From a virus (taxonomy: Duplodnaviria; Caudoviricetes): a stretch of 60,067 nucleotides of DNA. Below the pieces are notes generated by a model that ran no database searches, was not told the origin of the DNA, and saw only the letters and a list, made by a program, of their open reading frames with translations. Shown here in pieces: positions 770-1,332 of this stretch. Both the position numbers and the translations under genes were made by a program. The stretch is taken from positions 1 through 60,067 of the IMG/VR virus record IMGVR_UViG_3300048623_000045, one strand, 5' to 3'. The first letter of the stretch is position 1. Every line of letters begins with the position of its first letter.

Positions 770-1332
770 GTTTCCGTTGGGTGCGGGGCCGGGACTTACC
801 GATCACTCTGATGAACTAGCGGTCGTTCATCTCCGGCCCCGCTGTGTGTCCACCGGACCAGGTCTGGCAACCCGTCTCAATGTCCGAAGGAGTGCGTGTA
901 CGGGATTCGAACCCGTGGTTCCTGCCTCGGGCGTCCGCTAGCTGGACGTTGCTCCTCTGGCTCTCACACCCCGTTCCCAGGGCTGCAATAGGCCGCTCTG
1001 CCAACACGCGCCACGTTTACCGGCCGCCGCCAGTCGCCAAACAATCCCCCGGGGGGAAAGCTTCTCCCCGGTCCGATCTGCTGCGACTTCCTGCACCCCC
1101 GCCCGTCCGACTTCACTCAGCTCCCTCTCGGACAAGGTTCACGCTGGCGCCGTTTCCGGCGGGGCGGGGGCAGTCTCTGTGGAATTGTGCTGGACCGGTC
1201 TGCACCCAGTGGACCCGCCGTAGCGAAGGACTTTCCTGGAACCGGTCCAGCTTCGGGGCGCCAACCCCGCCACCAGTTCGCACACCCGCTGGTGGCCGGG
1301 TAGCTGGCCCGGTTTCCCGGTCCCGTGCTACT
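770..1332 (-). ncRNA. Putative long structured non-coding RNA (or array of RNAs)
   Basis: No credible ORF. Consecutive stems 783-792/833-842 and 1189-1199/1241-1251, GAAA tetraloop hairpins at 1149-1160 and 1309-1320, G-U pairs favour the minus strand; own promoter upstream. Confidence 0.6.
892..1010 (-). ncRNA. Atypical tRNA-like RNA (~118 nt) with enlarged anticodon/variable region
   Basis: Acceptor CGCGTGT/ACACGCA (C1:A72 mismatch), U8, D-arm GCAG-AGCGGCCTA-TTGC, T-arm ACGGG-TTCGAAT-CCCGT; 67 nt between D- and T-arm; no encoded CCA. Confidence 0.7.

Follow-up and report, generated by a model that had tools for sequence, protein, structure and literature searches.

A tRNA-like element without an anticodon in an operon leader of a high-GC actinophage contig: a probable tRNA look-alike that does not decode

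The window analysed here is the whole of IMG/VR virus record IMGVR_UViG_3300048623_000045 (Duplodnaviria; Caudoviricetes), a 60,067-bp viral contig with 68% G+C, and our subject is a 119-nt transfer RNA (tRNA)-like element near its left end. Judged by its genes, among them those for a portal, a major head protein, a tape-measure protein, an endolysin, a primase, a DNA polymerase, a helicase and an exonuclease, the phage is a siphovirus of Actinomycetota. The closest isolates are Streptomyces, Mycobacterium, Nocardia and Gordonia phages, all distantly related; for the first 8 kb of the window, resemblance is distant and confined to single genes of Streptomyces, Mycobacterium and Nocardia phages, and no isolated phage has DNA similar to positions 860-1060. 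A gap of 612 nt between the exonuclease gene and the gene for a 164-aa protein, with no coding-like open reading frame (ORF) in it, contains the element; genes and element are all on the minus strand. A first-pass annotation, made by a model from the letters alone, had placed a tRNA-like RNA at exactly 892..1010; the anatomy read in the sequence bears this out, on the minus strand, and we argue that the element is probably a working tRNA look-alike, neither a decoder nor a dead gene. The features of the locus, in the order in which the RNA would be read, are listed below.

1361..4033, minus strand: exonuclease gene (890 aa, phrog_466), upstream of the element and the conserved left border of the locus.
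1336..1364, minus strand: sigma-70-type promoter, TTGACA-17 nt-GAAAAT, from a consensus scan (10 of 12 matches).
1011..1335, minus strand: long, GC-rich, structured, non-coding leader (no ORF with coding-like G+C at third codon positions; indels between near-identical relatives).
892..1010, minus strand (RNA reads 1010 to 892): the whole tRNA-like RNA, 119 nt, from the sequence, an Rfam alignment and relatives.
1004..1010, minus strand: acceptor 5' strand CGCGUGU, positions 1-7, pairing with 893-899 (C1.A72 mismatch; 2-71 to 7-66 all Watson-Crick).
985..1001, minus strand: D-arm GCAG-AGCGGCCUA-UUGC with G18G19, a class II tRNA-Ser D-arm sequence.
968..983, minus strand: hairpin GCCCUG-GGAA-CGGGGU in the place of the anticodon arm, read in the sequence and seen among near-optimal folds.
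917..967, minus strand: 51-nt variable region, including an imperfect long hairpin GCC..GGC with the tip CGUCC-AGCUAGC-GGACG.
900..916, minus strand: T-arm ACGGG-UUCGAAU-CCCGU, from the sequence, the Rfam alignment and relatives.
892..899, minus strand: acceptor 3' strand ACACGCA plus C73; CCA is not encoded, and UCC comes next.
783..842, minus strand: large hairpin in the 5' untranslated region between element and start codon, an inverted repeat with outer stem GCGGGGCC/GGCCCCGC.
254..748, minus strand: 164-aa gene, phrog_870 (PHROG match, E 4e-19), downstream of the element and in the same direction.

The seven acceptor positions hold a C1.A72 mismatch followed by six Watson-Crick pairs and then C73. 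U8 is present, the D-stem (numbered along the RNA) pairs G10-C26, C11-G25, A12-U24 and G13.U23, the D-loop AGCGGCCUA holds A14, G15 and GG, and a C just 5' of the T-stem makes a G15:C48 pair possible. The marks noted at first pass, namely C1.A72, U8, A14, G18G19, the G15:C48 pair and the UUCGAAU T-loop, are all in the sequence; the segment between the D- and T-arms, given as 67 nt, comes to 68 nt on recount (positions 27-94). Both of the folds proposed for this segment exist, GCCCU/GGGGU and GCCCUGGG/CCCGAGGC, the latter with a C.A mismatch. The hairpin at 968..983 has six pairs, two of them G.U, and a GNRA-type tetraloop with no anticodon. The 51-nt variable region may form a hairpin with linkers of 6-7 nt on each side, and its tip CGUCC-AGCUAGC-GGACG, with a central CUA and no U33, is present as described. 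In the free (unconstrained) folds used for this middle part, several structures of the variable region lie within 2 kcal/mol of one another, and a single internal fold is not picked out.

ARAGORN calls no tRNA or transfer-messenger RNA (tmRNA) gene in the whole window, and Rfam at gathering thresholds gives no match at the element. With permissive filters, the Rfam tRNA model (RF00005) covers 892-1010 on the minus strand from one end to the other, at 26.0 bits against a cut-off of 29 bits (E 0.005 over the 801 nt searched, 9e-5 per genome), with 61 nt standing where the model has 17 anticodon-arm positions. The element falls below what a scanner takes for a tRNA gene (at least 29 bits or an ARAGORN call); it has the acceptor, the D-arm with G18G19 and the T-arm of one, and it lacks a regular anticodon arm, with its 5-bp stem, 7-nt loop, U33 and anticodon. 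By minimum free energy (MFE), neither the whole element nor its middle part folds better than shuffled sequences. With free-energy folding unsupportive, the evidence that the feature is real comes from its relatives, which are listed here by locus.

L002 and L003: identical 119-nt element; both flanks differ.
L004: 164-aa protein 98% identical; two shorter elements; identity with the window ends exactly at position 1 and resumes in the T-arm.
L005: 164-aa protein 85% identical; two elements, the second identical to the second of L004.
L006: 164-aa protein 69% identical; 74-nt tRNA, called Arg(UCG) by ARAGORN, with G33, G3.U70 and A73.
L255 and L257: 68-nt elements behind TTGACA-17-TAGAGT promoters, with phrog_466 upstream in both.
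L256 (55% GC, a different phage with an unrelated flanking protein): 82-nt tRNA with an enlarged anticodon arm, 41 bits, beside a tmRNA and another tRNA.
L271 (71% GC): 67-nt element after a phrog_466 gene; no phrog_870 match in the three downstream ORFs scanned.

A profile scan of viral contigs with the 164-aa protein returned the same five loci, L002-L006, and a profile scan of metagenomes returned two contigs, the same records as L004 and L005, and nothing further; the protein database holds 26 relatives of the protein, many of them on Logan contigs. L255, L256 and L257 were found by a pattern of the T-arm and 3' strand, and L271 by one of the T-arm and a short variable loop. The elements stand directly after the phrog_466 exonuclease gene in L255, L257 and L271, and before the phrog_870 gene in L002-L006 and L255. 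The L255 homologue of the 164-aa protein, just downstream of its tRNA-like element as in the window, is 32% identical; in L257 the next gene is unrelated. The window shares the setting of L255 and L257, after a phrog_466 gene and behind a TTGACA-17-nt promoter; at the L271 locus the comparison covered the exonuclease gene. In addition, at least half of the sampled words of the window stretch occur in 18 of 24 listed sequencing runs, and all 18 are DNA runs; the stretch is also present in contigs from soil, rhizosphere and root DNA runs. Positions 892-1010 are invariant in L002, L003 and contigs of four such runs while both flanks vary, and the comparison of these four runs yielded no new variant of 892-1010 and no joints. 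By this comparison, the window's element is the largest member of a small family that is kept at one locus by high-GC soil actinophages.

Eight distinct elements, registered by their T-loops and ends, were compared: the window's own (W in the counts below), the first and second of L004 (L004_1 and L004_2), the first of L005 (L005_1) and those of L255, L256, L257 and L271. Pairs 2-71 to 7-66 are standard in 48 of 48 cells, with two to five pair types at each pair, and the mean is 3.95 of 6 pairs when a 5' strand is matched to another element's 3' strand. Among permutations of partners, 1 in 50,000 reaches 48, approximately the rate expected from the identity permutation plus an exchange of the two strands that are identical. 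Between W and L004_2, pair 3-70 changes from C-G to G-C and pair 7-66 from U-A to G-C, both compensated. This pattern indicates that the acceptor helix is maintained in the family by compensatory changes, and together with the synteny in relatives it indicates that the element is beyond chance. Random decay of the arms in homologues, which the first-pass annotation had named as the observation that would undo its reading, is the opposite of what is seen, as the arms covary.

The same comparison bears on the explanation that the element is a decaying tRNA gene, or a fusion of two, without function. Decay would agree with the lack of any ARAGORN call and the Rfam score below cut-off, with an anticodon loop that has been destroyed and with the rapid turnover of locus content; a 5' part like the first L004 element joined to a T-arm and 3' strand like those of the second is what deletion between tandem copies is expected to leave. 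A fusion of different genes would, however, mismatch the acceptor, and here six of six pairs are Watson-Crick and the differences from relatives are compensated. The T-arms are perfect in six of the eight elements that carry the mismatch at position 1.72 (L005_1 has one extra T-loop base and L004_1 one extra base after the T-stem), the element type persists where the flanking protein is 32% identical, and no polymorphism falls within the element in the four environmental runs. Given the covariation, we consider a dead gene unlikely and leave it only a slight chance.

While the helix varies, the end of the acceptor does not. Position 1.72 is mismatched in all eight elements (C.A in five, A.A in three), position 72 is A and position 73 is C throughout, and position -1 is G in seven of the eight. 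The pattern that found L255, L256 and L257 fixed C71, A72 and C73, so that these three contribute independent observations only in the 5' strand and at the base of position 1; W, L004_1, L005_1, L004_2 and L271 were found without any acceptor condition. Every member keeps a four-way junction with a D-hairpin and a hairpin at the anticodon position.

This second hairpin is where the family departs from tRNA. A tetraloop or a loop of at most 6 nt occupies the anticodon position in five of the eight elements (W, L005_1, L255, L257 and L271), on stems of 4-6 bp with the tetraloops GGAA, UAAC or UGCA, and with such short loops these five would be unable to present an anticodon. In W, a 6-nt loop closes to the GGAA tetraloop; L005_1 has a 6-bp stem with a UAAC loop; L255 and L257 have 5-bp stems with UGCA loops and a compensated closing pair (G-C in one, A-U in the other); and L271 has the hairpin CCUG-GGAA-CAGG with no long insert. 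A loop of canonical form (CUGAGAC) is kept by L004_1 only. The first-pass judgement that this is probably not a normal decoding tRNA is supported, as the 7-nt anticodon loop is absent and a tetraloop hairpin stands in its place. At L271, the 67-nt element at 7340-7406 (GGAA tetraloop, C1.A72, C73) lies ~100 nt upstream of an ordinary tRNA-Lys(CUU) at 7508-7580; as this phage carries the mimic beside an ordinary tRNA, the mimic is not merely a remnant of the phage's only tRNA.

Decoding could still be rescued in two ways, by removal of a 44-nt insert as an intron, which the first-pass annotation had raised, or by amber suppression through the CGUCC-AGCUAGC-GGACG hairpin. A stem of 5 bp whose 7-nt loop is centred on CUA is indeed present, and GCCCUGGG/CCCGAGGC could enclose an insert. 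Removal of the insert, which for a bulge-helix-bulge intron should restore a 7-nt anticodon loop, leaves none, however; no group I intron or other Rfam family was matched at the element, the host lineage is bacterial, and the compact relatives have tetraloops, no insert and no anticodon. The CUA hairpin lacks U33 and stands 36 nt away from the D-arm. TAG ends 5 of the 57 predicted genes, including the neighbouring 164-aa gene, and all long genes are open under table 11; with TAG an ordinary stop in this phage, there is no need for a suppressor. A decoding tRNA of either kind is, in our judgement, very improbable.

Still less credence goes to a miniature tmRNA-like molecule, in which a tRNA-like domain would be combined with a 7-codon tag frame (GCC..UAG) in the variable region. 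Acceptor and T-arm do enclose an insert, the short frame begins with an alanine codon and ends at the UAG of the hairpin loop, and weak Rfam tmRNA matches (12-13 bits) occur on L255 and L257. Against this, neither ARAGORN nor the Rfam tmRNA models match W, no pseudoknots were found, the compact family members are too small for a tag, and pair 3-70 is C-G rather than the G3.U70 that alanyl-tRNA synthetase needs.

Several relatives show further departures from ordinary tRNA genes. The second element is the same sequence in L004 (3794-3862) and L005 (3759-3827) though the flanks differ; it has an initiator-like set of A1.A72, A11-U24, a GGG/CCC anticodon stem and a CAU triplet, together with a loop ACCAUGG (C33, G37), a D-loop without GG and a tRNA score of only 16 bits. 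The 82-nt tRNA of L256 (10-nt enlarged anticodon arm, A1.A72, C73) stands in a row at 7252-7982 with the tmRNA (68 bits) and a second tRNA (44 bits), and ARAGORN labels both tRNAs 'tRNA-???'. At L006 (3861-3934), the anticodon arm of the tRNA called Arg(UCG) can also close to 6 bp with a 5-nt loop, and its G3.U70 and A73 are what we take to be alanine identity marks; it may be another non-standard member of the locus. On the minus strand of a further phage contig (L270, 61% GC), around 8260-8340, a tRNA-like sequence with G1-C72, A73 and a canonical D-arm has, read by eye, a GGCA tetraloop on a stem of 4 bp in place of the anticodon arm, and receives no ARAGORN call. Genes of this anticodon-less kind may be more widely spread than the family described here.

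The D-arm points to the element's parentage. The pattern GGCAGAGCGGCCTANTGC matched at least 120 genome stretches, mostly from Mycobacterium and other Actinomycetota; among the matches listed, ARAGORN made 108 tRNA calls, 103 of them tRNA-Ser(UGA), and the other five, most of them again of class II, were a Leu, a Ser-GCU, a Tyr, a Phe and, in one stretch, a neighbouring tRNA-Arg. Outside the D-arm and T-loop, the element has little identity to these actinobacterial genes. It is best read as derived from a class II tRNA with a Ser-type D-arm, and this D-arm, together with the same GGAA hairpin without an insert in L271, is why the fold with a short arm and a ~50-nt variable region fits better than that with an insert. 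The 5' part (CCCUG.G.ACGGG..GUGAGAGCC) resembles the first L004 element, and the T-arm and 3' strand are nearly those of the second, so that the 119-nt form may have been made by deletion or recombination between tandem copies. If this is true, the acceptor was re-matched afterwards by compensated changes, which argues for selection.

Likeness to the probable parent extends to the D-arm GGCAGAGCGGCCUAnUGC, which is found in tRNA-Ser(UGA), the 7-position acceptor, the canonical T-loop and perhaps the long variable region. The element differs in having no 7-nt anticodon loop or serine anticodon, in its mismatched 1.72 and in C73, where the discriminator of tRNA-Ser is usually G73; mycobacterial tRNA-Ser genes measure 87-91 nt in total, and the variable region of the element alone is 51 nt. 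With bacterial initiator tRNA it shares C1.A72 followed by G2-C71, C3-G70 and G4-C69. Initiator tRNA has A73, CAU, G29-31:C39-41 and A11:U24, whereas the element has C73, no CAU, CCC..GGG in the reversed orientation and C11-G24.

The promoter at 1336..1364 is the single site found by the consensus scan, against 0.1 expected, and its 30-nt block occurs once in the window. It is kept in all five relatives found through the 164-aa protein, identical in L002-L005 and near-identical in L006, where the protein is 69% identical; L255 and L257 have TTGACA-17-TAGAGT at the corresponding place. A scan of viral contigs with a promoter 15-mer returned 119 mostly AT-rich stretches, of which the known relatives alone were left after filtering. 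Transcription of the leader, the tRNA-like RNA and the 164-aa gene is expected to start from this promoter. The final 9 nt of the leader (1019-1011, UAAACGUGG) are the motif conserved directly 5' of position 1, and AAACGTGG abuts position 1 in five of the eight elements (W, L004_1, L255, L257 and L271). Beyond L255, L257 and L004, the matches of a pattern of leader motif plus T-loop were nearly all ordinary-looking tRNAs (one match is no tRNA) in unrelated phages. Downstream of the element, the hairpin at 783..842 keeps its outer stem in L004 and L005 with a variable interior, and the fold of 749-891 has z = -2.6. The Streptomyces phage TP1604 has a promoter and an analogous hairpin before its homologous gene with no tRNA-like element, and upstream of the Xkcd426 homologue a tRNA is neither annotated nor found.

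This arrangement is the ground for the strongest rival, in which the element would be cis-acting punctuation only: an RNase P and RNase Z cleavage signal that severs the leader and sets the 5' end of the downstream mRNA, and with it that mRNA's stability or translation, while the excised RNA has no role. The position between promoter and first operon gene is fixed and conserved, the leader motif ends exactly at -1 in five of eight elements, and the large conserved hairpin downstream could shield the new 5' end. Cleavage by these enzymes needs only an acceptor/T-arm minihelix, whereas every member keeps the four-way junction, and W and L271 keep the D-loop GG; the conserved 1.72 mismatch, A72 and C73 would be without obvious use; and relatives of the TP1604 type express the homologous gene from promoter and hairpin alone. 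Precedent exists in plant mitochondrial t-elements, degenerate tRNA-like folds in mRNA leaders and trailers which have been proposed as RNase P/Z signals at mRNA ends (PMC1920247); they belong to an organelle system, they are not reported to conserve acceptor-end identity, and the element, by difference, keeps the full four-way junction. We regard punctuation alone as a serious possibility, though an unlikely one overall. A processing signal for RNase P/Z and a decoy had both been suggested at first pass, and both are plausible candidates.

The reading that we favour, tentatively and with somewhat less than even confidence, is that the element is a tRNA-derived, non-decoding tRNA mimic that acts through its acceptor/elbow half and is cut out by RNase P and RNase Z. 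We take the RNA product itself to be functional because the 1.72 mismatch, A72, C73, usually G-1 and the elbow are invariant while the helix varies, and the excised RNA is preferred as the functional product because the four-way junction is kept in full. What RNase P and RNase Z recognise in a tRNA is its acceptor/T-arm and its elbow, and not the anticodon. The element would be transcribed from the 1364-1336 promoter as part of the long leader of the downstream operon and would fold into the tRNA L-shape; host RNase P would cut 5' at position 1, RNase Z or exonucleases would cut 3' after C73, and CCA, which is not encoded, would be added after processing. Processing would leave three molecules: a stable ~120-nt RNA unable to read codons, the detached leader, and an mRNA whose 5' end is new. 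The ~120-nt RNA would then be the target of a host or phage protein that usually acts on tRNA and that would bind or modify its acceptor end. RNase P is known to accept many substrates other than tRNA, as listed in a review (PMC11143913).

Several observations weigh against a functional mimic. Phages with a 98%-identical flanking protein differ sharply at the locus, one 119-nt element in the window against two in L004, and this turnover could equally be explained by relaxed constraint. The family is small, three of its members (L255, L256 and L257) were ascertained on C71, A72 and C73, and the acceptor end is a different one in L006 (G1-C72, G3.U70, A73) and in L270 (G1-C72, A73). Relatives lend no support to the 51-nt variable region, as all carriers of the 119-nt form are identical there, and the MFE of the element (-44.4 kcal/mol, z = -0.70) is equalled by 43 of 200 shuffles. 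The window stretch is found in DNA runs only, RNA runs holding at most 5% of the sampled words; because the runs that hold it are DNA runs, we infer transcription, excision, CCA addition and stability alike. Finally, the Streptomyces phages TP1604 and Xkcd426 have the homologous gene with no tRNA-like element upstream, which suggests that the tRNA-like cassette is an addition inside a 5' leader in one lineage.

If the mimic does act through its acceptor end, we can offer leads to its partner from general tRNA biology: G-1 with C73 may point to histidine identity, the class II origin to anticodon-independent serylation, and the 1.72 mismatch to exclusion from EF-Tu. A more daring proposal, to which we attach a low probability, is that the family is a phage counter-measure, an abundant, anticodon-less decoy of class II (Ser-like) ancestry, blind to EF-Tu through its 1.72 mismatch, that during infection soaks up or misdirects a host enzyme attacking or using tRNA 3' ends. 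Candidate targets in Actinomycetota would be nucleotidyltransferase toxins of the MenT/AbiEii type, toxic alarmone synthetases that pyrophosphorylate CCA, or an anticodon-independent synthetase. MenT3 is reported to favour Ser-tRNA in vitro, and MenT1 to require no more than an acceptor stem with CCA (PMC10435456); toxic alarmone synthetases are reported to pyrophosphorylate CCA ends (PMC11245113). Were the decoy proposal true, the rapid change of the locus between near-identical phages would be the mark of an arms race. A bold variant, suggested by the location of the locus in the replication module, is that the RNase P cut at the conserved ...AAACGUGG end of the leader frees a 3'-OH RNA that primes or activates replication.

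Viruses are already known to encode tRNA-like RNAs that do not decode. Stable 'species 1/2' RNAs come from the tRNA cluster of phage T4, and gammaherpesvirus 68 makes tRNA-like RNAs; to our knowledge, no viral tRNA-like example has been described with an anticodon-position tetraloop, a conserved 1.72 mismatch or such a genomic setting. The 3' tRNA-like structures of plant viruses are a further case (PMC4810235). All of these resemble the element in keeping the top half of tRNA for host tRNA enzymes without decoding, and differ in their carriers, which are RNA viruses, an enterobacterial phage and an animal virus. The Bacillus cereus pseudo-tRNA 'tRNA-Other' is likewise reported to be tRNA-shaped and non-translational and to have a phenotype, and is set apart as a chromosomal bacterial gene of ordinary tRNA size (PMC3399842). 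The tRNA-like domain of tmRNA, too, has an acceptor and T-arm, no anticodon arm and a large insert between its halves, but the element has no G3.U70, pseudoknots, credible tag frame or model match. A full-text literature search, which did not extend to supplementary tRNA lists, found no description of anticodon-less tRNA-like RNAs of actinobacteriophages.

The neighbouring genes show features of their own. The 164-aa protein has no Pfam family and no sequence match in PDB, and a protein atlas gives only unnamed viral clusters. The 890-aa exonuclease matches phrog_466 at residues ~157-392, parts of unrelated 'terminase/primase/DnaC' PHROGs at residues 392-724 and Pfam LAGLIDADG_3 at residues 590-652; the inserted segment looks like an intein with a homing endonuclease, and the exonucleases of L255, L257 and L271 are shorter (540, 574 and 708 aa). 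No tRNA-handling enzyme was found among the 58 window ORFs scanned. The only RNA-enzyme label in the phage falls on a 1085-aa head-region protein (24436-27693, plus strand), of which residues 27-202 match the C-terminal part of an 'RNA ligase' PHROG (E 2e-21) and the remainder resembles portal, MuF-like and protease families, so that a ligase is improbable here.

Repeats accompany the element on both sides. The leader holds a perfect 11-nt inverted repeat at 1189-1199/1241-1251 (GCTGGACCGGT/ACCGGTCCAGC), and just 3' of the element, at 858-872, lies a near-palindrome, CCAGACCTGGTCCGG, which two changes turn into the perfect CCGGACCCGGTCCGG in L002; both are possible protein-binding sites. Directly upstream of the start codon of the 164-aa gene, a tandem 12-nt repeat at 756-779 (CTCTTTCCGTTG/CTGTTTCCGTTG, plus strand) includes the likely ribosome-binding site and is kept in L002-L005. 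A pairing of the leader (1245-1262) with the variable hairpin (930-947), 18 nt with 78% complementarity, was rejected, as in our judgement chance alone would give as much in a GC-rich stretch of 720 nt.

Discussion of phage tRNA genes usually centres on their use as codon supplements or on the replacement of tRNAs that host defences have cut. In the present family, selection within one lineage of phages would instead preserve the half of a tRNA that does not decode, with the anticodon discarded, so that the benefit would come from shape or acceptor chemistry and not from decoding, and the element would isolate the anticodon-independent value of tRNA shape to a phage. It would also mean that a conserved class of RNA genes in phages escapes the standard tRNA scanners. 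If the RNA acts by punctuation only, it would be a clear example, from a virus of bacteria, of an mRNA processing signal that resembles tRNA. Toxins directed at tRNA ends are unusually abundant in actinobacterial hosts, and if the RNA is a decoy or substrate of a host enzyme, it would represent a new type of RNA-based counter-defence in actinobacterial phages.

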